Below are positions 8,801 to 30,886 of a stretch of DNA of 54,430 nucleotides, piece after piece. A program made the translations under genes and the position numbers. Numbering within the stretch: position 1 is the first letter of the stretch; each line of letters starts with the position of its first letter. The DNA is from a virus (Duplodnaviria; Caudoviricetes). The notes under the pieces were generated by a model. The model saw nothing but the letters and a program-made list of their open reading frames with translations, had not been told where the DNA came from and did no database searches. Location of the stretch: IMG/VR virus record IMGVR_UViG_3300050011_000409, positions 1-54,430 of that record; one strand, given 5' to 3'.

Positions 8801-10932
8801 CGTTGCAAATCGGCCTTCAATTCATTGACCCGGTTCAAAACACCAGCCGGATCTTTCACGTCCACGCCTAGTTTGGAGGCGGCTTCGGGTCGTTTGGCCG
8901 CGCCTTGAACGGAACGGATTTGATCTGTGATTTCCGTTTGGCGTGCGGACGCTTTCGAGGCCATTGCTTCGGCCTGTTTGATGGCGGTTTCGTCGCGGCC
9001 AAATAAATCAACTTGCTCGGCGGTGCCGCCGGTCTGTATCTGGACGGCCTTGATGAAGTTCTCGATTTCGGCTGGAGATCGGCCCTTGAGCGCCTGCTTG
9101 ATGCCCATGCCCTGAAGATCCGCGTTGCCGGGCGCGGCGCGGGCGATGGCTACGGCTTTTTCGGTGGTGATTTTACCGTCCCGCCAAAGGGCATAGACAT
9201 CATCGCTGGAGTCTTTGCCAAGTCGCCAGCCGTTCTCGCCCTTAGAGCGCGAGAGTAATCCCCGCGATCTAGCATCGGCCTCCGTGAGCGAAGGGGTGTT
9301 TTTGAAGTAGTGCGCATAATCTTCTACACTGCCTTGAGCATCGCGTATATTTGCTTCGGCGTCAAACGTTAAAGCCTGCTCCTTGGTGAAGCCATCGGCT
9401 TCACGCATGATTTGCGCCGGTATAGTTTTCTCGCCCGTGCGCCGGGCCAGATCGAGGCGATGTCGTCCGGTGATGATTTCTTTTTGTCCATTCAACCGCT
9501 CCCAAAGGACAATCGGCGCGGTGCCGACGCGCTGATAAGCGCCGCCGAGACGTTCGGAAGCCACGATGCCGGTCTTTGGGTCGGCTTCAAACTTGAAATT
9601 GGGAACGTCCTTGGAAAGTTGGACTTCGGAGACGGGAACTTCGACGACCGGATGCCGTTCGGTATCCGCAATGTAAGTTGTCGAACCGGGACCGGCGACT
9701 GCCGCTGCGATTGGCTCGGGTTTGGCTGGCGTTTCAGTTGGCGCGGCTTGAGTTGGAGGTTTTGCGGCTCGAAACACCTCGGCTTTATCGTTGGCAAGCT
9801 TCAGGACTTCTTCCGGGGTTGCTCCTTGTTTTGCATAAAAACTTGCGCCATAAGCGGGGTCGCTTTTGGGCAGATTTCGGAACGTGAATTGATGCAGTTT
9901 TATGTCACCAGATTCAAAATCAGCGTCGTAAGTGAATCCGTGTTTGTCGCCTATATTCTTGATGGTGGGCGCTGCGCCGGACGGAGCCGCAGTTTCCGGC
10001 GGAGCGGTAGTTCCAATGTTTTGATCTTTGACCGGTTCCGAAGGCGTTTCGGGCGTCAGTGCCAATGCACCGGCTTGGGCTTCTTGTGGGGCTTCACTCG
10101 TTCCGGCAGTTTCCCCTTGTTGTCGAAGTGGTGCTTGCGTGCCCACTCCGGCCCCTTGTTCGCGTAAATCCACGCCCTCTCCGCTTGCGATTTTGCTGGC
10201 ATTTTGTGACTCACTTTCTGTTGTTGGTTTGATTTTTCCTTTGAAAGCTCTCCCGGCCATTCCCGTTCCGATTAGTGCTTGGCCGATGTTCTCGACCAAC
10301 TGGCCGGGGGTCATGTTCGGGTTGTTGATATTCTGCCGCACGGCATCGACAACCATCTTCACGCCCTGTGCCCTGAATCCCAAATCCATCAGTTTCTTGG
10401 CGACGGGAGCCATTTTCGCGGCGAACTGTTCTTCTGCGGTGGCCACTGCCGAGCCTCCGCCAGTGGCAGCCATCAAAGCAATTCCGCCGGGGCTTGCGAT
10501 AGAATCAGCAATTTCAGATGCCAAATTCTGAACTCCCTGCATCACCGTTTTGGGCTGGTCAACGCGCGGAATGATCTGTTTCTTGTTCGTGAACAGCCCC
10601 ATTGCCCCGGCGTCACTGGTTGTCGGAGCGGATTGCAGAGCAGGAACGGCCGCCTTCTCCGCGTCAGTCCGGCCAAGCAGTGTCTCGACCGGCTGTGACG
10701 TGCGCAGGGCGTGAAAGGCGTCTGACGCGCGCTGGCGCAGCGTGGGCGTGTAGGCCGACATTTGTGCCGTGTCGAAGCGCGGCGGTGGCGTGGCGGTGGC
10801 CGATTTCGTCTCGGCGGGTGCCTTGCTGTAAAGATCCCACGGCTTTTTCTGGGCGAACTGCTCCCACGGCTTCTGTTTCGTGGAATCCTCGGCGTCAACC
10901 GCATCCGGGAGTGTGGCAATGTCGTCCGCCAT
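5875..10932 (-). CDS. Giant internal virion (ejection/polyvalent) protein containing a ParB-like CTPase + HTH region
   Basis: About 1685 aa from ATG 10932; N-terminal KPWEQF/KPWDLY motifs; PIVLWE..EIITGRHRLDLA (ParB GxxRxxA) and SRSKGENGWRL..DGKITTEKAVAIA; last gene of the tail/ejection operon. Confidence 0.8.
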   Translation of the reverse strand: MADDIATLPDAVDAEDSTKQKPWEQFAQKKPWDLYSKAPAETKSATATPPPRFDTAQMSAYTPTLRQRASDAFHALRTSQPVETLLGRTDAEKAAVPALQSAPTTSDAGAMGLFTNKKQIIPRVDQPKTVMQGVQNLASEIADSIASPGGIALMAATGGGSAVATAEEQFAAKMAPVAKKLMDLGFRAQGVKMVVDAVRQNINNPNMTPGQLVENIGQALIGTGMAGRAFKGKIKPTTESESQNASKIASGEGVDLREQGAGVGTQAPLRQQGETAGTSEAPQEAQAGALALTPETPSEPVKDQNIGTTAPPETAAPSGAAPTIKNIGDKHGFTYDADFESGDIKLHQFTFRNLPKSDPAYGASFYAKQGATPEEVLKLANDKAEVFRAAKPPTQAAPTETPAKPEPIAAAVAGPGSTTYIADTERHPVVEVPVSEVQLSKDVPNFKFEADPKTGIVASERLGGAYQRVGTAPIVLWERLNGQKEIITGRHRLDLARRTGEKTIPAQIMREADGFTKEQALTFDAEANIRDAQGSVEDYAHYFKNTPSLTEADARSRGLLSRSKGENGWRLGKDSSDDVYALWRDGKITTEKAVAIARAAPGNADLQGMGIKQALKGRSPAEIENFIKAVQIQTGGTAEQVDLFGRDETAIKQAEAMASKASARQTEITDQIRSVQGAAKRPEAASKLGVDVKDPAGVLNRVNELKADLQRWQNWPLHPDLVTEVGGKLKPTPKPTARVAPKSAPGELLTAAETPFNLAGEKAKFVEPTKTETAFGGEKLTQNDLFAIRDIVQEVDPFKSANAAEKMYGGSAQAAKTIQRQLSVMAKDPESYKSFDKKQKARLQEVLNLLNERTAETPAPTEPTIKSPMSAFGKAFYKNTEGQWRQKGKPSASVNASTIDALEQLTKPKAAAQPEMVAMGGDVPHPRPQDFGTTGAPQDIYGVAERVRKARAAAGQVAPVPTGQGVSAEEAVKWGQDLIAMGADPEVSMREFERTRATSFDLISFTRAYGEQLAKSARSVEEKFGTDSIQYRTAQKALSDWDTRTKPIQTEWHKQGMAQQGETDIDTGSFTGINRAFREISGRDLNPAEAKTARKLAADVNEADKATEPAKAGLQTAIDGIAEKGTPVKVAADLESQRKAFGDYESGKPMTPLQVKTLWTRAKTEYIDKGNDSRPDIVHKLAIDLGLPVKDIMRGLEQTKPVRRAADDVWQRQRQARMLKEFAKNWVNHATETWLQKSLPTVARTLFTLKTGLHGTVALGTHAPLVVATHPILFKNNFGRMYHLVLSPEYYEMQQHEIARRPNYTVAQRAGLVNDMSKMEDFSDPKLAQGFPKMAAWFKAKLDKAHLGRVVGMGTRGYSVLKILRQDLFDNAWNKLAESEKSPELAKAIADSVNHITGVTKTGGGVVGKYAHYALFAPKLEASRVAVIATDPVRAVNSLLKMKNMTEAEKWFATNQFKEKASIFAVFTGLMLANQQLNELFGDKKKLNGVPVALGGGGWNPMQSDFGKFRVAGMTFAWGSPFLTMTRLPLRIYQIGAGSGGKTKYLIYPDESMYKTGGSYLRTQASPFISPVISVITKGDYADRPLPQMPGYGKPQPVPKRLAAEGVKPYTWKEFGTGIVLPIPFEEGANEVFHYYDLGQTKAAQNTLLRAFAITLIMAGTGGRMAEDWNKPKPRAANPAWSPPP

Positions 10933-10936
10933 AAAA

Positions 10937-11893
10937 TCACTGCACTGGACTTGGCTGCGAGGGAGCTTCCATCCAATTTTTCTGGTCGGCTGGATCGCCG
11001 CCTTTGAAGACGTAACCATTTATCACGTCTCCTTGTTTGGGCAAACCCGGCGAGGACGGCGCGGCGGGAGCAGGACCTCCGGCGGCGGGTGTTGGTGCTG
11101 GCGCGCCGGGCGCGGCGGCGTGGAAAGCATCGGCAAGTGATGCTCTAATCGGAATTTTTTGAGTCACGGAATAAGCAGGATGCGCGGGGACTGCCGGGAC
11201 ATCTGGAACGGCAGCCACGTTTTTATCACCAAACCAACTCTTAGGATTCAACAAGCTGCGGGAGTAAGCCGGAGATCCCGGAACCGCCGGGATTTCATCG
11301 GCTTTCTCAAATCGTTCCGTGACGGTTTTTTCCGGTCCCGGTCTTGCCGTGGCTTGTGCCAATGCCGGTGTCCATGCGCGAGGATATTTGGCGAGAGCTT
11401 CGGCGGGCGTCATGCCGCCGGCAACCGCCATTGAGTAATTCTGGCGGTCGGCCAAAGCCTGGGCTTTTTCCGCCGTATCCTGCTGAACCTTTTTCGCCGT
11501 CTGGTCTATCCGTTGCTGGCCAAGGCCGATTTGCGCCTGTTTATAGGCGTTGGCCACGGCGTCCTGGGTCTGGCGGAGCATGAAATTCTGCTTGGCCGTT
11601 TCCTGCCCGGCCTGAAATTCCATCGCGGTCTGCTTTTGCTGCGCTTCGAGCCTCTGCTTTGCAAGACCAAGCTGCTGCGCGGCCTCTGCCGCACTTTGCG
11701 CCAGTCGCGCGCCTTCCATCTGGCCTTGTTGTGAAATTCGCGCGCCTTCCAAATCGCGTTCTTGTGCCAGTCGCGCGCGTTCCAAATCGCCTTGTTGTCC
11801 CAGTTGCGCGTTTTCTTGCCCCGCGCGGACGCCCGCTTCGCGCGCTTGCACGAACTGCGACGGTGAGACATCGAGCCAGGGAGGAATTTGCAT
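10937..11893 (-). CDS. Probable DNA ejection protein (Gln/Ala-rich coiled coil)
   Basis: Q/A-rich helical repeats, C-terminal GDVINGYVFKGGDP..NW motif; position in the operon. Confidence 0.65.
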   Translation of the reverse strand: MQIPPWLDVSPSQFVQAREAGVRAGQENAQLGQQGDLERARLAQERDLEGARISQQGQMEGARLAQSAAEAAQQLGLAKQRLEAQQKQTAMEFQAGQETAKQNFMLRQTQDAVANAYKQAQIGLGQQRIDQTAKKVQQDTAEKAQALADRQNYSMAVAGGMTPAEALAKYPRAWTPALAQATARPGPEKTVTERFEKADEIPAVPGSPAYSRSLLNPKSWFGDKNVAAVPDVPAVPAHPAYSVTQKIPIRASLADAFHAAAPGAPAPTPAAGGPAPAAPSSPGLPKQGDVINGYVFKGGDPADQKNWMEAPSQPSPVQ

Positions 11894-25356: not shown

Positions 25357-25578
25357 ATGAACACCCACAAATTATGTGTATCATGCCGATGGTTCGCTCT
25401 GGCACCAGCCAGCCAAGACGCCGAAAACGCGAACTGCAAACAACCGACCCTGCAAAAGACTTCGCCTGTGACGGGCAAGATTGAAATGCGATTTTGCGGC
25501 AACGAACGCCAGGGCATGGGCGCCTGCGGGCCGGACGCAAACCTGTTCGAGCAGAAACCGGAAACGACAAATTTATGA
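25357..25578 (+). CDS. Small Cys-rich protein
   Basis: CVSCRWF..C..FC..CGPDANLFE; ATGA overlap with the next gene. Confidence 0.65.
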   Translation: MNTHKLCVSCRWFALAPASQDAENANCKQPTLQKTSPVTGKIEMRFCGNERQGMGACGPDANLFEQKPETTNL

Positions 25579-26594
25579 GCTTTGAAATTCACGCAGCATC
25601 GCGGCAGGGAATCAAACCGCTTGTCGGTTTTTACGGCAAGTCAGGCAGCGGGAAAACAATGTCAGCACTTTTGCTGGCGCGCGGCATCGCCGGGCCGACC
25701 AGAAAAATCACACTGATTGACAGTGAGAATGGTCGAGGGTCAATCTTCGCCGACCTGATCCCGGGCGGATACGGGGTGTTGAATCTCGATGCCCCATTTT
25801 CCCCGGCGCGTTACGAAGAAGCCATTGCCGAGGCCGAGAAATCGTCCGATGTGGTTTTGGTAGATTCGATGTCCCATGAATGGAGCGGGGAAGGCGGCGT
25901 TCTGGATTGGGCGGAAGAAGAATTGCAGCGCATGGGCGGCGGGGACAACAACAAGATGCGGTCGTGGGTCAAGCCTAAAATGGCGCACAAGAAGATGGTT
26001 CAACGCCTACTACGAAGCAAGTGCGCCCTGATATGCTGTCTGCGTGGTGAAGAAAAGACGCACATCACAAAGCCGGAGGCCGGACAAAAAGCAAAAGTCA
26101 TCACCGACGAATTTTCAACACCGCTTTTTGACCCGCGCTTTATTTACGAATTGCTTCTCAACTTTGAAACGGTCGCGCACAGCGGCGTTGGCGGGTTTAT
26201 TGTGCCGCGCAAGATAACGCATCCTTCGATTGCGGCGATTCTCCCGCGTGAGAATGAGCAAATCAGCATCAAGCACGGCGAAGCGTTGGCCGCATGGTGC
26301 GCGTCGGCGGGGTCGCCAGCAGGCGTTTCGTCACTATCGGCTACCGTGACAGCCCCTAAATCGTCTGGGGACGCGTCAGATGAGAAGCAAAAGCTGGAAT
26401 TGGAGCTTTGGGGAGTCCTTAAATCAATCAGGACGCCGGGGAAAAAGGGATTTGCCGAAGTAAATGCGTGGCTCTGGCGCGAGGAAATTCTTGACGCCGC
26501 CATTGAACCGCCTCAAACAGTGGAAAGTTTGACGCCTGCAAAACTCCGTGAAGTCATTTCAAAGGCAAAGGCAAAACTTGGACAACTGGTTTGA
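25575..26594 (+). CDS. P-loop ATPase, Sak4/AAA_24-like recombination protein
   Basis: GKSGSGKT, LIDSENG, VLVDSMSHEW; adjacent to an exonuclease. Confidence 0.85.
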   Translation: MSFEIHAASRQGIKPLVGFYGKSGSGKTMSALLLARGIAGPTRKITLIDSENGRGSIFADLIPGGYGVLNLDAPFSPARYEEAIAEAEKSSDVVLVDSMSHEWSGEGGVLDWAEEELQRMGGGDNNKMRSWVKPKMAHKKMVQRLLRSKCALICCLRGEEKTHITKPEAGQKAKVITDEFSTPLFDPRFIYELLLNFETVAHSGVGGFIVPRKITHPSIAAILPRENEQISIKHGEALAAWCASAGSPAGVSSLSATVTAPKSSGDASDEKQKLELELWGVLKSIRTPGKKGFAEVNAWLWREEILDAAIEPPQTVESLTPAKLREVISKAKAKLGQLV

Positions 26595-26597
26595 AGT

Positions 26598-26780
26598 ATG
26601 ACAATAGATCACGCGCCAACAATCCGGGCTTTCGTCGAGGAACGATTGAATCAACTCCGCGCCCGGACTTCATATTATGAGGGAAAAGAAAATGTGATCG
26701 AGGAATTGGAGAATGTTCTAACGCTCATTGATGGCCTGAACAAGCAAAACGAACTTCTGACAAAGGCGCTGGGGATTTGA
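26598..26780 (+). CDS. Hypothetical protein (60 aa)
   Basis: Operon packing. Confidence 0.55.
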   Translation: MTIDHAPTIRAFVEERLNQLRARTSYYEGKENVIEELENVLTLIDGLNKQNELLTKALGI

Positions 26781-26922
26781 CAAAACTCCAATTTGATTTA
26801 TGCTTTCCTTGTGCAACGACAATCAAACTCTGCTCTCGCCCGCGAAGCCGTCAAACCGGCTGACTTCGCCTTTATCGGCATCGTTGCACACGCGGGCGGG
26901 AGCGTTCAAAGGTGCAACGATG
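26777..26922 (+). ncRNA. Promoter plus pseudoknot/antisense-type leader RNA of an HNH gene
   Basis: TTGACA-16-TATGCT; 26810-19 pairs with 26881-90, 26832-44 with 26891-903, and 26879-89 with the start-codon region 26912-22. Confidence 0.55.
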
Positions 26923-27339
26923 AAAAAATGTTCTATAAAAGGATGTAACGGAAAACATCAGGCCAAGGGTTTTTGCTCTCCACACTATCACCGATGGAAA
27001 AGAACTCGAAATCCAAATCCTGATAAACCAGTCGGGGCTAGGACTGGAAAATTTAACAGTTGTTGGAGGGGTGGTGAAATTAATTTGATCAGTGGGCGCG
27101 TTCTTATTTATTCGCCCAATCACCCACATCCAAATACGGGTGGTGTTTATGTTTTTAGGTCTCGATTAGTCGTGGAAAAGCGACTTGGACGTTTTTTGCT
27201 GCCAAGTGAAATAGTTCATCATAAAAACGGAATCCGTAGCGATGATCGAGACGAAAACTTGGAATACATGACGCAATCAAGGCACGCAAAAATTCACAAC
27301 GTGAATGGCAAATTCAGCCATGAAACAATATGTTCATAA
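26920..27339 (+). CDS. HNH homing endonuclease
   Basis: CSIKGC..KGFCSPHY zinc motif; EIVHHKNGIRSDDRDENLE. Confidence 0.88.
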   Translation: MKKCSIKGCNGKHQAKGFCSPHYHRWKRTRNPNPDKPVGARTGKFNSCWRGGEINLISGRVLIYSPNHPHPNTGGVYVFRSRLVVEKRLGRFLLPSEIVHHKNGIRSDDRDENLEYMTQSRHAKIHNVNGKFSHETICS

Positions 27340-28328
27340 ATGCAAAAGTAATTGGAGCAAACCAAAAAAGAGGCGGCGCGAATCAACCTCCAAGGGGAGA
27401 TAAATCTTTTATCATGTCCCGCACGCAGCTTGTGGCTTTCGCCTTGAATCCCGCCAAGTGGATTGACGGTGGAGAAGTCGAAGAGGAGTCCAAGGCGATG
27501 AGGTTTGGTAGTGTGCTGGATTGTCTGGCGACCACGCCGGACGAACTGCTGAAAAAGTTTGCCGTGACGCCCGAACTCTATCCGGCCACGCCGAAGAAAA
27601 AAGGCGACGAACCGGAAATGAAAAAGTGGCATTCATCTACATATTGCGACAAATGGAAGGCGGACAAAGAGGCCGAAGGATTCACCGTCGTCTCGCCAAG
27701 TCTTTTTGAGGATGCAAAAAAAGCTCATGCTGCCCTACACGCCAACAGTGCTGCTGCCGAGCTTATCGAATGCTCGGAAAAGCAGGTTTTAATCTCGGCG
27801 GATTGGAAGGACTCAAAAACTCGGCTGATGATTCCTTTCAGCGGACTGATTGATCTTGTGCCGCCACCGAATCACCCCGTCTGGGGCAAGAGCCTTGGGG
27901 ACATAAAAACTACCGCTAACGCCAACCCTGCTCTTTGGGCTAGAAAAATTGACGATTCAGGATACGACGTTCAAGGTGCGCTTTACTTTGACATCTACCG
28001 AGCTGCTCGACCAAACGAGGACAGAACTGACTTTGTGCATTTGGTGCAGGAGAGTGTTTTTCCGTTCCATGTTGTCAATCCTATTCCCGCCCTAACCTCC
28101 GAATTTTTGTCGTGGGGTCAGGAAAAGTATCAGTCAGCCTTGGCGAGATACGCTCAATGTCTGGCGACGAGCGTGTGGCCGTCCTACGCTGTTGCCGGAC
28201 TTCGATTCGGCCCGACGCAGTTAATCGGCCCGGACGAGCTTTGGAATTATCGAAAAGCCGGTGGAGTTGAAATGGCCAAGCGAATTGAATATCAACCCAA
28301 ACTTGAGTCTGAAGATGTCCCGTCTTGA
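27330..28328 (+). CDS. PD-(D/E)XK exonuclease, RecE/ExoVIII-like
   Basis: AMRFGSVLD, SGLIDLV..GDIKTT, GYDVQGALY. Confidence 0.82.
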   Translation: MFINAKVIGANQKRGGANQPPRGDKSFIMSRTQLVAFALNPAKWIDGGEVEEESKAMRFGSVLDCLATTPDELLKKFAVTPELYPATPKKKGDEPEMKKWHSSTYCDKWKADKEAEGFTVVSPSLFEDAKKAHAALHANSAAAELIECSEKQVLISADWKDSKTRLMIPFSGLIDLVPPPNHPVWGKSLGDIKTTANANPALWARKIDDSGYDVQGALYFDIYRAARPNEDRTDFVHLVQESVFPFHVVNPIPALTSEFLSWGQEKYQSALARYAQCLATSVWPSYAVAGLRFGPTQLIGPDELWNYRKAGGVEMAKRIEYQPKLESEDVPS

Positions 28329-28338
28329 AACAAATTCC

Positions 28339-28614
28339 ATGAGCACATTCAAGCGCGGGAATACTCGGCGTCGTCTTCAGCGACTTGTCGGGGCGTATCC
28401 AGAAGGAACCGCACTAATGAGAATGCGCAAAGGGAAAGAATTATTTGACTGGGCGGTGGCCGCCGCAGCCGATGACAACGAAGAAACATTGAAGGCACAT
28501 GCTGGGCGTTGGATGCCCTTTGCCGAACTCATGGCCGTCGCCTTCAATCGCCCTAACGAATCAAGCTCTGCCACGAGTGGTGGGCAGGGCGTAACCAATG
28601 CAAACAAACCGTAA
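28339..28614 (+). CDS. Cassette-like ORF 1 (hypothetical), reading into attC-like site 1
   Basis: Spans a degenerate attC 3' half (RRRLQRLVG) at its start and attC1 at its end. Confidence 0.45.
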   Translation: MSTFKRGNTRRRLQRLVGAYPEGTALMRMRKGKELFDWAVAAAADDNEETLKAHAGRWMPFAELMAVAFNRPNESSSATSGGQGVTNANKP

Positions 28615-28677
28615 AATTAACGCGATGCCGCCAACCTCAAGGGACACCACTCGTTGTGCAGCAGCGCGTTGTTAGGC
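28551..28677 (+). mobile_element. Integron attC-like recombination site 1 (127 bp)
   Basis: CCCTAAC ... GTTAGGC ends; arms gct-ctgc-c-acgagtggtg / caccactcgt-tgt-gcag-c-agc with bulged bases. Confidence 0.7.
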
Positions 28678-28681
28678 GTGT

Positions 28682-28906
28682 ATGAACGAACAAACCGAAG
28701 CCCGACTGCATGAAATAATGAGCATCGCCAGAAAGCTGTCATGGCTCTACAAAAATCCAACTGGCTACCCAATGATGCAGGGCAGCGAAGTGGAAAAATG
28801 TATCCTGATGGCACTGGATGACCGCGAACTCGAACGCTTCCGAGAGGCGGTGAAGGATGCTGATGTCATCACCATCAACCGCAACATAAACCCTCAACAC
28901 GCCTAA
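28682..28906 (+). CDS. Cassette ORF 2 (hypothetical, 74 aa)
   Basis: ATG 4 nt after GTTAGGC; stop TAA lies inside GCCTAAC of attC2. Confidence 0.7.
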   Translation: MNEQTEARLHEIMSIARKLSWLYKNPTGYPMMQGSEVEKCILMALDDRELERFREAVKDADVITINRNINPQHA

Positions 28907-28990
28907 CGCCACAAGCTGAGGCACAGCGGACTAGGCGCGTGGATTGCAATGACGGCGCTAACCGCTGTTGCCTCCAGCGCGTTGTTAAAC
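28901..28990 (+). mobile_element. Integron attC-like recombination site 2 (90 bp)
   Basis: GCCTAAC ... GTTAAAC; arms gctg-aggca-cagcgg / ccgctg-T-tgcct-C-cagc with two extrahelical bases. Confidence 0.78.
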
Positions 28991-29001
28991 GGCCCAAAAA
29001 C

Positions 29002-29217
29002 GTGACGGCCAACGCACAGAAAACATGCTGCAACTGGCTGGCTTTCTGCCTGACGCTAGGATGGAAGAAAGATTCACTGGATGCGCTCGAACAAATGTGG
29101 TGGGACTACCATGACCGAACCGGAAAACTCGTCAGGCCGCACGCCGCTGATGAGCCGCGTGGCGCGCGTGAAAGTCACGCGGGCGCAAGCACGATTTCAG
29201 GTGGTGGCATTTTATGA
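29002..29217 (+). CDS. Cassette-like ORF 3 (hypothetical)
   Basis: GTG shortly after attC2; WLAFCLTLGW..LEQMWWDYH; runs into a decayed attC 5' half at about 29136. Confidence 0.5.
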   Translation: MTANAQKTCCNWLAFCLTLGWKKDSLDALEQMWWDYHDRTGKLVRPHAADEPRGARESHAGASTISGGGIL

Positions 29218-30476
29218 TCAGTGAACTTGATGCCAGCTTCTTCCTCCGTTTCGATATTCCTTAAAATATCGGCCAGAGATTCAACGCAGGCGTCCGCGCC
29301 GTCCGGCAACAGGTCGGCGAGCCTGTTCATTTCCTCCGCGACTTCGGTTGGAGTGTCGCCCACAGCCAGCAGCCAGCCGATTTCCTCAATGGACGGCCCG
29401 TCCGCTGGAAACCAAATCTTTCCGTCGAGTTCACAGCAGTCACAAACCTTCAGCCAAGGCTTGAGTTCATCCGGGAGAACGATGGAAGCCCAGGAATCTG
29501 ACTCGCCCTTTATCTTGACCATGCACTCGGCGGAAAACTTGAAGCCGTAATCAGTGTCGACCAGTTCGCCATCCGCGCCGTGCCATAGTATTTCCGGCAC
29601 GTTCGCGGCGGCTAAGAAGGAGGCGGTGGACGGCATACCGCCGCGCGCTGTGGCGTCAATGAAGTAGGCTTCGGCTCCGGTGACGCGGACTTCCATTGAC
29701 CACTGGCAACTATATTCACTTTCGGCGAGAAACGGCGAGAACGCATCCATGATATGGGTAAGTTCATCGGGCATTTCCCGTTTGAGTGTGACGGCGGAGA
29801 AATAGGCTTCATCTTTTTGTTCAATTCCGTGGAGCATAGTGGCTGGCCACTGGCCATGCACGCAAAATGTGTCCGCGCCGATTTCGAGTTTGGTGTCAAT
29901 CTTGTCGAAAACGAGGAATGGGACGTGTTCTTTCAAGCCGCCAAGCTTCACTGCCCAGAGGTCGAGATTTTCTGCGTCCTCGCGCCAACTGCGCCAGTGT
30001 TTGGTTTCCAAGCTTCCTCTCCAAAATGAAACCTTGATGAATTGATCCTTTTTGTCTTTGAGATAATCGGCCAAAGCCGAAAGACCGACAAGGCTACGAT
30101 GGGGTGCGATTGCCAGACCAAGCTCGCCGAGTTTTTGGAAAAAGAATTCTCGGTTGGTTTCCAGTCTCATGCCGGCCCCGGCCCCCCAGACGCGGCAGCC
30201 TTGGGCGCGCAAATCAGCTTGCAGGCCTTGGTGGTAAATGTCCGGGAAAACCCATAGGTCAATTTTGTTTTTTATAGCCCACGGGTCATTACAGCGAATG
30301 ATGTCATCGAAACCCGCGCCTATGATGCCTTCGTTCAGTGTCGGAAACGCCTTTTCAAAAGGCGTGTGGTAATAGACCTTTCCGAATCCACCGGGTTCGG
30401 CTAGTCGCCGGGCCAGCGGGAGAAAAAATCCGTGGTCAAAAACCAAGACCGTGCGGTTTGAAAAATCCTCGCTCAC
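29175..30476 (-). CDS. ATP-grasp ligase, PurD (GARS)-like
   Basis: VWGAGAGMRLETNREFF, FIKVS, WSMEVRV..YFIDATARGGMP follow the GARS ATP-grasp layout. Confidence 0.75.
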   Translation of the reverse strand: MSEDFSNRTVLVFDHGFFLPLARRLAEPGGFGKVYYHTPFEKAFPTLNEGIIGAGFDDIIRCNDPWAIKNKIDLWVFPDIYHQGLQADLRAQGCRVWGAGAGMRLETNREFFFQKLGELGLAIAPHRSLVGLSALADYLKDKKDQFIKVSFWRGSLETKHWRSWREDAENLDLWAVKLGGLKEHVPFLVFDKIDTKLEIGADTFCVHGQWPATMLHGIEQKDEAYFSAVTLKREMPDELTHIMDAFSPFLAESEYSCQWSMEVRVTGAEAYFIDATARGGMPSTASFLAAANVPEILWHGADGELVDTDYGFKFSAECMVKIKGESDSWASIVLPDELKPWLKVCDCCELDGKIWFPADGPSIEEIGWLLAVGDTPTEVAEEMNRLADLLPDGADACVESLADILRNIETEEEAGIKFTDHKMPPPEIVLAPA

Positions 30477-30886
30477 AAATTCAATTCGCCATAGGTGCCA
30501 TAATTGACGGTGAGTTCTTCGCCTTCGGCAATCTCCCGTAGCGTGAAGAAGTCTCCATCCCGTTCTTCCATATTAGGAGTCTTGCTGTGGTTCAAAAACC
30601 ATGCCACCCCACACGAGTTGAGACTGTGATTCGGGATGTCAAAAACGCCGTCATTTTCGGGGCACAAATCTACCACCAATTGCATGATGGATTTGGGAAG
30701 TTGGGCGGATTCAATAGCGGCTCTGGTGCAAGTTTCAAACACGCACGGCCTGTCCTCTTGCATCGGATTGATGCCCTTGGGGATTGGCCGGACGGCGATG
30801 ACGCCTACGCCTTGGATTTTGCTCGCGCCGATGCGGCAGAACACTTTTGTTTTGAGGTCGTTTATGAATTCAGTTGCGGTGATCAT
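30473..30886 (-). CDS. SET-domain lysine methyltransferase
   Basis: SKIQGVGVIA, FLNHSKTPN, REIAEGEELTVNY. Confidence 0.92.
   Translation of the reverse strand: MITATEFINDLKTKVFCRIGASKIQGVGVIAVRPIPKGINPMQEDRPCVFETCTRAAIESAQLPKSIMQLVVDLCPENDGVFDIPNHSLNSCGVAWFLNHSKTPNMEERDGDFFTLREIAEGEELTVNYGTYGELNL

Follow-up and report, generated by a model that had tools for sequence, protein, structure and literature searches.

Integrons have been studied as gene-capture devices of bacteria, and clusters of attC sites in phages have been reported only recently, from cultured phages. The superintegron of Vibrio is the archetype of the sedentary chromosomal integrons. Inverted cassettes of chromosomal integrons are toxin-antitoxin cassettes with promoters of their own, and they form a minority within canonical arrays. 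Closest to the locus described below are the phage CALINs of Qi et al. (2023, PMC9892861), which number 17 in phage genomes, with IntI1-dependent recombination with attI1 recorded for five of six phage attC sites; phage-borne attC clusters are therefore a known kind of element. IntI also inserts cassettes at GWT sites of genomes (attG), which gives rise to SALINs or small CALINs, as set out by Loot et al. (bioRxiv 10.1101/2022.09.11.507474).

The locus lies in a viral record of 54,430 bases that is complete and carries direct terminal repeats; the record was analysed at its full length and is referred to as the window. It holds a real attC cluster that is a new example of this known kind; what distinguishes it is the link to the attC family of a host group and a systematic reversal of polarity. 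As in the phage CALINs of Qi et al. (PMC9892861), at least two attC sites lie on one strand, the cassettes are small, there is no integrase in the cluster, the phage is without a lysogeny integrase, and DNA methyltransferases are frequent cargo, here in sibling arrays. It departs from those CALINs in that the phage is uncultured and from peat, in that its attC family leads back to IntI-linked arrays of Verrucomicrobia, and in that up to 16 matches to our attC model occur in one complete phage record. Its gene/attC polarity is inverted, unlike that of the one site which our model finds in phage TJE1. With the sedentary chromosomal integrons of Verrucomicrobiae MAGs it shares the attC family, with homogeneous classes of 90, 99, 108 and 127 nt, a single polarity per array and a complementarity of the boxes beyond 7 nt, but the phage arrays are small, are without intI, carry their ORFs on the attC bottom strand and have no cargo that was found in common with the bacterial ones. 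The genes lie on the attC bottom strand as in the inverted cassettes of chromosomal integrons, but what is a minority there (35 of 256 bacterial intervals in our data) is the rule in these phages. Like the attG insertion of Loot et al., the locus would involve the entry of cassettes into DNA without attI, with IntI acting in trans; unlike attG insertion, no GWT-type junction was recognised at either end of the array, and the attG route predicts an ORF followed by its attC, the opposite of the polarity in the window.

Setting and structure of the two palindromes

The cassette cluster sits where a rightward recombination module and a leftward gene for a 433-aa protein converge (Table 1). Roughly 850 bases separate the two and hold both palindromes together with two to three small ORFs. 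The 433-aa protein, which the original prediction had labelled ATP-grasp, gave no family match. A blastn search of 27300-30500 against GenBank phages returned no match, and no relatives of the exonuclease were found when the protein was used as a query among viral contigs. Beside the 433-aa gene, upstream of a 793-aa ORF of portal size, lies a gene for a SET-domain protein at 30473-30886 (-) (PF00856, 37.5 bits). Across 1-36 kb the GC skew is positive for the + strand, though the minus strand carries most of the large genes in that region; the cumulative skew has its maximum near 36 kb.

Table 1. Features of the array and its neighbours, in window coordinates
Feature	Position	Strand	Basis or remark
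AAA_24 ATPase	25494-26594	rightward block	Pfam
HNH_3 endonuclease	26800-27339	rightward block	Pfam
DUF3799 PD-(D/E)XK-like exonuclease gene, left neighbour	27330-28328	+	PF12684, 49.2 bits
Possible remnant, attC 3' half (loop end, L', spacer, degenerate R' GTCGGGG)	28342-28394	+	nhmmer
ORF1	28339 (or 28417)-28614	+	91 aa, or 65 aa from ATG 28417
attC W1, 127 nt	28551-28677	+ (bottom-strand equivalent)	covariance model R1, 53.8 bits; fold
ORF2, 74 aa	28682-28906	+	homologues and codon-position pattern
attC W2, 90 nt	28901-28990	+ (bottom-strand equivalent)	R1, 55.4 bits; alignment with bacterial 90-nt sites
Third interval	28991-29174	+	no convincing ORF; only in the window and L012
433-aa gene, right neighbour, anchor of the variable locus	29175-30476	-	11 related viral loci found through it

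The two full palindromes of the original prediction (W1 and W2) are real, and the covariance model described below matches both at exactly the coordinates given in Table 1. Their right ends have in common the exact 13-mer CAGCGCGTTGTTA (28662-28674 and 28975-28987), for which the whole window holds five matches with at most two mismatches, only those two being exact. ORF2 is flanked by an 11-nt perfect inverted pair, GTTAGGCGTGT at 28671 and ACACGCCTAAC at 28897, which contains GTTAGGC and GCCTAAC. As had been claimed, its stop codon (TAA, 28904-28906) falls inside the heptamer GCCTAAC, that is, in the R'' box of W2. The end boxes are GCCTAAC (R'') and GTTAAAC (R') in W2 and (G)CCCTAAC and GTTAGGC in W1, and both pairs follow the pattern RYYYAAC / GTTRRRY; W1 has C instead of G at the first R'' position and one extra bulge. 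In the folds and the model alignments, an L''/L' pair is separated from the R boxes by spacers of 5 nt that are unpaired. The L box has two or three bulged bases (T and C, with a third in W1), and the loop is variable. The bulged bases of the original prediction are present as well, and in DNA folds of the + strand the single-base bulges of the paired stem are all on the 3' arm. The folding energies of the palindromes are unremarkable (z -1.3 to -2.1), Rfam over the whole window gave no match at the gathering score, and no terminator-like site (a GC-rich hairpin with a T run) was found at W1 or W2.

Because Rfam gave no match, the test of attC identity was built independently of the phage. Our own covariance model, R1, was made from 28 bacterial attC sites only, all non-redundant and from IntI-linked arrays of Verrucomicrobiae MAGs. 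Its orientation is that of the window's + strand, and it was searched over all 54,430 bases with filters off. The training structure of the 28 sites is 96.3% paired and shows compensatory change at 8 of 21 pairs; its score was reached by none of 500 shuffles, and slid controls had 24-44% pairing. R1 recovers both sites at full length, W2 with an E-value of 4e-13 and W1 with 1.1e-12, and the covariance-model check that had been proposed thus supports both. The third-best match in the window reaches 12.4 bits (E 0.23); it lies at 8835-8898 (-) inside a 1714-aa ORF, has AAC/GTT-like ends and is probably due to chance. On the opposite strand of W1 and W2 nothing was found at E<=10. R1 also recovers a paradigm attC site, that of aadA1 on plasmid R100, where the bottom strand scores 38.0 bits and the top strand 6.2. 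In an alignment with bacterial 90-nt sites W2 belongs to that length class and has loop motifs in common with it, and a site 93.6% identical to W2 is present in an unrelated viral contig, L043. Both W1 and W2 score as high as many of the bacterial sites. By the measure of this model, W1 and W2 can be regarded as established integron attC sites. Two sites on the + strand, 223 nt apart and without an integrase, fit the CALIN definition of Cury et al. (2016, PMC4889954).

Decayed half-sites had been proposed at both edges of the array. At the left edge (~28342-28394) the profile HMM gives a weak, local match (10.1 bits, E 0.031) in which 28342-28388 is matched by nhmmer to the model's 3' half; this is the window's third-best match, on the same strand as the full sites. 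The right half-site (~29136) finds no support from the HMM or the covariance model, and a covariance search for truncated half-sites returned nothing on either side. A contig of run X3 matches 28350-28388 and then goes on differently with a proper GTT box. A truncated third attC at ~28342-28394 is possible.

The original prediction placed one short ORF in each interval, which holds for ORF1 and ORF2 but not for the third interval, where the candidates at 29002-29217 and 29081-29224 are not convincing. None of the window's three small ORFs matched Pfam or PHROG. ORF1, whose last 64 nt overlap W1 and whose alternative start is preceded by AAGGA, is an orphan for which a protein search returned only itself. 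ORF2 has six homologues at 71-100% identity, and it differs from the copy in metagenome contig L190 at 30 nucleotides, of which 20 are third codon positions; 17 of the codon changes are synonymous and 8 non-synonymous. Judged from its homologues and this codon pattern, ORF2 is a real gene for a conserved small protein that is under purifying selection in the + frame. The AF2 model of ORF2 has a pLDDT of 88.9, and a comparison of the fold with the PDB gave no match at E<=0.001, the best E-value being 1.9.

Bacterial arrays of the same attC family and gene polarity

A pattern derived from the second palindrome was scanned over 185,579 genomes, with one genome for each species, and matched 40 stretches. 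Of these, 31 are in MAGs whose titles read Verrucomicrobiae, Verrucomicrobiia or Verrucomicrobiota, often with several per contig. Three of five such genomes have an integron integrase above the TIGR02249 cut-off; one intI, from which the array begins at a distance of 1.4 kb, scores 413 bits against a cut-off of 265. A search of candidate host integrons for the same attC family, as originally suggested, thus finds it in IntI-linked arrays of Verrucomicrobiae MAGs. In one contig (G001:C3) intI is at 195119-195958 (-), and sites of the family extend from 197319 to beyond 264 kb in a single orientation. The array loci of this contig (L124, L127, L136, L138, L148, L159, L162 and L175) have a site every few hundred bases, in the classes of 90, 99, 108 and 127 nt, and transposases of the IS110, IS1595 and DDE types are inserted in both orientations. 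One cassette of a G001 array encodes an N_methyl (prepilin-type) motif with a weak DUF1559 match below the cut-off.

The Verrucomicrobiae MAGs are a plausible source of IntI for the phage, and the host would be a peat or soil verrucomicrobium. A sample of 301 genomes from the class to which G001 belongs yielded no relatives of the portal protein, and hence no prophage-based host link, so the attC family is the sole basis of the host link, and the binning of MAGs may err at repeat-rich arrays. Cargo common to the phage arrays and about 0.4 Mb of bacterial arrays was not found (no tblastn match from 72 ORFs), and tblastx and tblastn searches of the phage cassette ORFs against the bacterial arrays gave attC-level matches at most.

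The original prediction read the locus in the canonical way, with each ORF followed by its own attC. This reading is wrong, as the strand test with R1 and aadA1 identifies the + strand of the window as the bottom strand of the attC sites: on R100 the model matches the strand opposite aadA1, which is consistent with the bulges on the 3' arm. Because the phage ORFs are encoded on the bottom strand of the sites, the window's cassettes are inverted relative to canonical integron cassettes, in which the ORF lies on the attC top strand with its own attC behind it; that arrangement is not found in the window. In the bacterial arrays the longest ORF is on the top strand in 220 of 256 inter-site intervals and fills a median of 92% of the interval; in 35 intervals it is on the bottom strand, and several of these ORFs are IS transposases. 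A greedy ORF set gave 255 top-strand against 71 bottom-strand ORFs, with 33 of 34 loci mostly top strand. Pfam found nothing above the cut-off in 10 bacterial cassette ORFs of L175. Because IS transposases, on either strand, make up the longest ORFs of the arrays, the bacterial polarity is drawn from ORF statistics.

The viral count covered contigs with at least two R1 matches of the same attC family. It left out L205 (a near duplicate of L194), L195 (the contig of L179) and six loci below that number, three having a single site and three lacking any. Bottom-strand ORFs prevail in 12 of the 14 contigs, with 56 ORFs (24.4 kb) against 21 (7.4 kb) on the top strand. All phage-array ORFs with a Pfam match above the cut-off are on the attC bottom strand. 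Five of 10 ORFs tested gave such a match (N6_N4_Mtase, Dam, two MT-A70 and PAPS_reduct), as did two of nine bottom-strand ORFs in a second set (Mom and AAA_25), in which the one top-strand ORF gave none. Several phage ORFs begin within the upstream attC loop or directly after it. In most bacterial sites the bottom strand of the loop carries an RBS-like AAGGNG near the 3' arm (alignment A1, columns ~100-106), with the ORFs on the other strand, and phage sites of L190 and L120 have a similar purine-rich stretch before real start codons inside the loop.

The reversal is not general to phage CALINs, because in phage TJE1 the single site detected by R1 (23 bits) and the methyltransferase gene stand in the canonical orientation, a comparison that comprises one site. 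A literature search found no paper on inverted cassettes with attC in integrons, and the text on orientation in the cited passages of PMC9892861 does not discuss gene-versus-attC polarity.

Variation at the locus

Relatives were located through the 433-aa protein, which led to 11 viral loci. Variable content among related phages had been predicted, and the cargo at the locus does differ. The locus with the closest protein (L178, 95% identity) has the same two attC sites as the window, while in a sister phage (L179, 79%) there are eight attC sites at the same locus with unrelated cargo; the other nine loci (48-72%) have no attC in the flanks examined. L178 is in the contig of L012, a contig of a second viral record, and L195 is a contig of L179. 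By blastn the array of L012 is identical to that of the window, and the homology begins at 28325, the left edge of the array. Homology to L179 picks up exactly at 29175, the stop codon of the 433-aa gene, and the variable block is therefore 28325-29174. The recombination module itself also differs between the window (25578-28325, with AAA_24, HNH_3 and DUF3799) and L012 (4570-7482, with RecT at 80.9 bits, a 426-aa ORF and a weak HNH_3) in phages that are otherwise 98-99% identical, with the breakpoint of the swap at 28325.

The homologue of ORF2 in L190 is 89% identical, and the attC sites that flank it differ from those of the window. Around ORF2, the nucleotide homology of the window to L190 runs from TTGTTAGGC to GCCTAACG. 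Neither of the attC sites that flank ORF2 goes along with it between the two, and a simple cassette of an ORF plus its attC therefore fails to explain the exchange. A first, loose viral pattern was rejected, as it gave mostly chance matches, the related ones being only L012 and L043.

Among the matches listed, the stretch is present in 20 runs from 18 studies, nearly all labelled as peat or permafrost metagenomes; the record itself may come from one of these runs. Contigs of four of the runs branch off W1 at 28552/28562 and 28675 and off W2 at 28901/28903 and 28987/28994. An 11.3-kb contig of run X4 covers 28325-30500. In run X2 a contig joins 28678 to 28900, possibly with other sequence between the two sides; its depth is 11.5 and that of the neighbouring unitigs 31.5, 19 and 32, contig depths being rough. 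These endpoints differ from those of bottom-strand excision by IntI, which would be expected to remove 28557-28906, and no IntI-made junction was seen among the run contigs. Parts of 27300-28262 without cover in X2, X4 and X5 were set aside as uninformative, as was a joint in X5 at 28574-28653 (side 23) within the W1 hairpin.

Larger arrays of the family occur elsewhere. The record behind L120 and L121 (G306, 44,650 bases, with direct terminal repeats) has 16 R1 matches, two of which are one site counted at both ends. Its minus-strand array wraps the ends of the record between 41501 and 2241, and two further sites are on the plus strand at 10522-10625 and 11612-11701. A basic ORF of ~47 aa, with ~70% amino-acid identity, is found at 1930-2103 in L043 and 700-873 in L121, contigs that are otherwise dissimilar; its end coincides with an attC R'' box in L121 and with a lone R''-like heptamer at the array end in L043.

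The missing integrase and competing explanations

As predicted, the complete record encodes no tyrosine recombinase, with no match to TIGR02249 or PF00589 at E<=1. The locus is not a complete integron, in which intI is accompanied by an adjacent attI and Pc, as it has no intI. PF00589 was likewise found in none of 10 other viral records with sites of this attC family, three of which are rated at least 90% complete. Most likely W1 and W2, with the possible third site, make up an integrase-less CALIN, the cassettes of which would be exchanged by a host IntI in trans. We infer this action in trans from the identity of the sites, the lack of a phage recombinase and the presence of IntI with the same attC family in candidate hosts, as well as from the variation at cassette level and the breakpoints at the boxes. 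The original prediction thus stands as regards the attC sites, the absence of an integrase, a supplier of IntI and varying cargo, and gives way on the canonical polarity and the right half-site.

In this mechanism the cassettes would be inserted and exchanged by IntI supplied in trans from the infected host. Recombination between attC sites is a possible route, and insertion at a secondary GWT site, as for attG, an alternative one. The ORFs would be transcribed from the rightward early operon. The cargo is likely accessory; sibling arrays mostly carry DNA-modification enzymes of the anti-restriction type.

The main rival, which we consider unlikely, is that the sites are derived from attC but now act as short conserved linkers for homologous recombination by the phage, of the RecT or Sak4 type, with IntI playing no current part. 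It would explain the exchange of ORF2 with a breakpoint at each of the two boxes and neither attC body attached, as well as the swap at 28325 of the very recombination module that the array adjoins. The 28678-28900 joint, unlike an IntI excision from the bottom strand, and the absence of an integrase from all 11 viral records also favour it. It leaves unexplained why structure and strand specificity were retained: the phage sites keep their paired architecture and bulges and score 54-55 bits on one strand only, which a patch of homology does not need. The conserved ends are, moreover, merely 8-16 nt long, and all sites of an array have one polarity, as in integrons.

Decidedly improbable is a passive relic, that is, a piece of an array that was acquired a single time, whether by illegitimate recombination or by IntI in the past, and that is now inert and decaying. 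The truncated left site, the extra bulge and the C for G at the first R'' position of W1, and the identical array of L012 speak for this reading. Against this stand the eight different cassettes at the same locus in the sister phage, the 16 R1 matches in a complete phage record with direct terminal repeats, the population variant at the ORF2 segment, and two full sites that score like many bacterial ones. Ordinary intergenic hairpins (terminators or REP- or MITE-like repeats), or a contig that is a chimera or a bacterial fragment, would suit the modest folding z-scores and the silence of Rfam, but this is close to refuted by the lack of a terminator-like site at W1 and W2, by the full-length matches to a model of IntI arrays that cross-detects the attC of aadA1, by the direct terminal repeats of a record rated complete, and by the recurrence of the arrangement in L012 and in independent runs such as that of the X4 contig.

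Exchange by a host IntI in trans, the explanation preferred here, suggests that phages of this kind trade small accessory genes by means of a host enzyme. A bolder and more tentative proposal is that the phages infecting Verrucomicrobia of peat and soil maintain a separate cassette pool, reversed in polarity and rich in counter-defence genes, which host IntI shuffles among otherwise unrelated virulent phages. In such a pool the gene would lie on the recombinogenic bottom strand, often with its start in the attC loop or just after it, and the cargo would be DNA-modification genes for counter-defence. If this were true, host cassettes that land in a phage array would remain antisense and silent, phage cassettes caught at a host attI would remain unexpressed, and the strand that folds would be the non-template strand of a heavily transcribed operon.

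One attC family ties these uncultured phages to the integrons of an uncultured host group, which offers both a host prediction and a concrete IntI. The consistent reversal of polarity sets the cassette pool of the phages apart from that of the host, and it touches on the coupling between strand choice, expression and the origin of cassettes. With Mom, Dam, N6_N4 and MT-A70 methylases and a PAPS-reductase-like protein among their cargo, sibling arrays point to counter-defence genes that move as cassettes.
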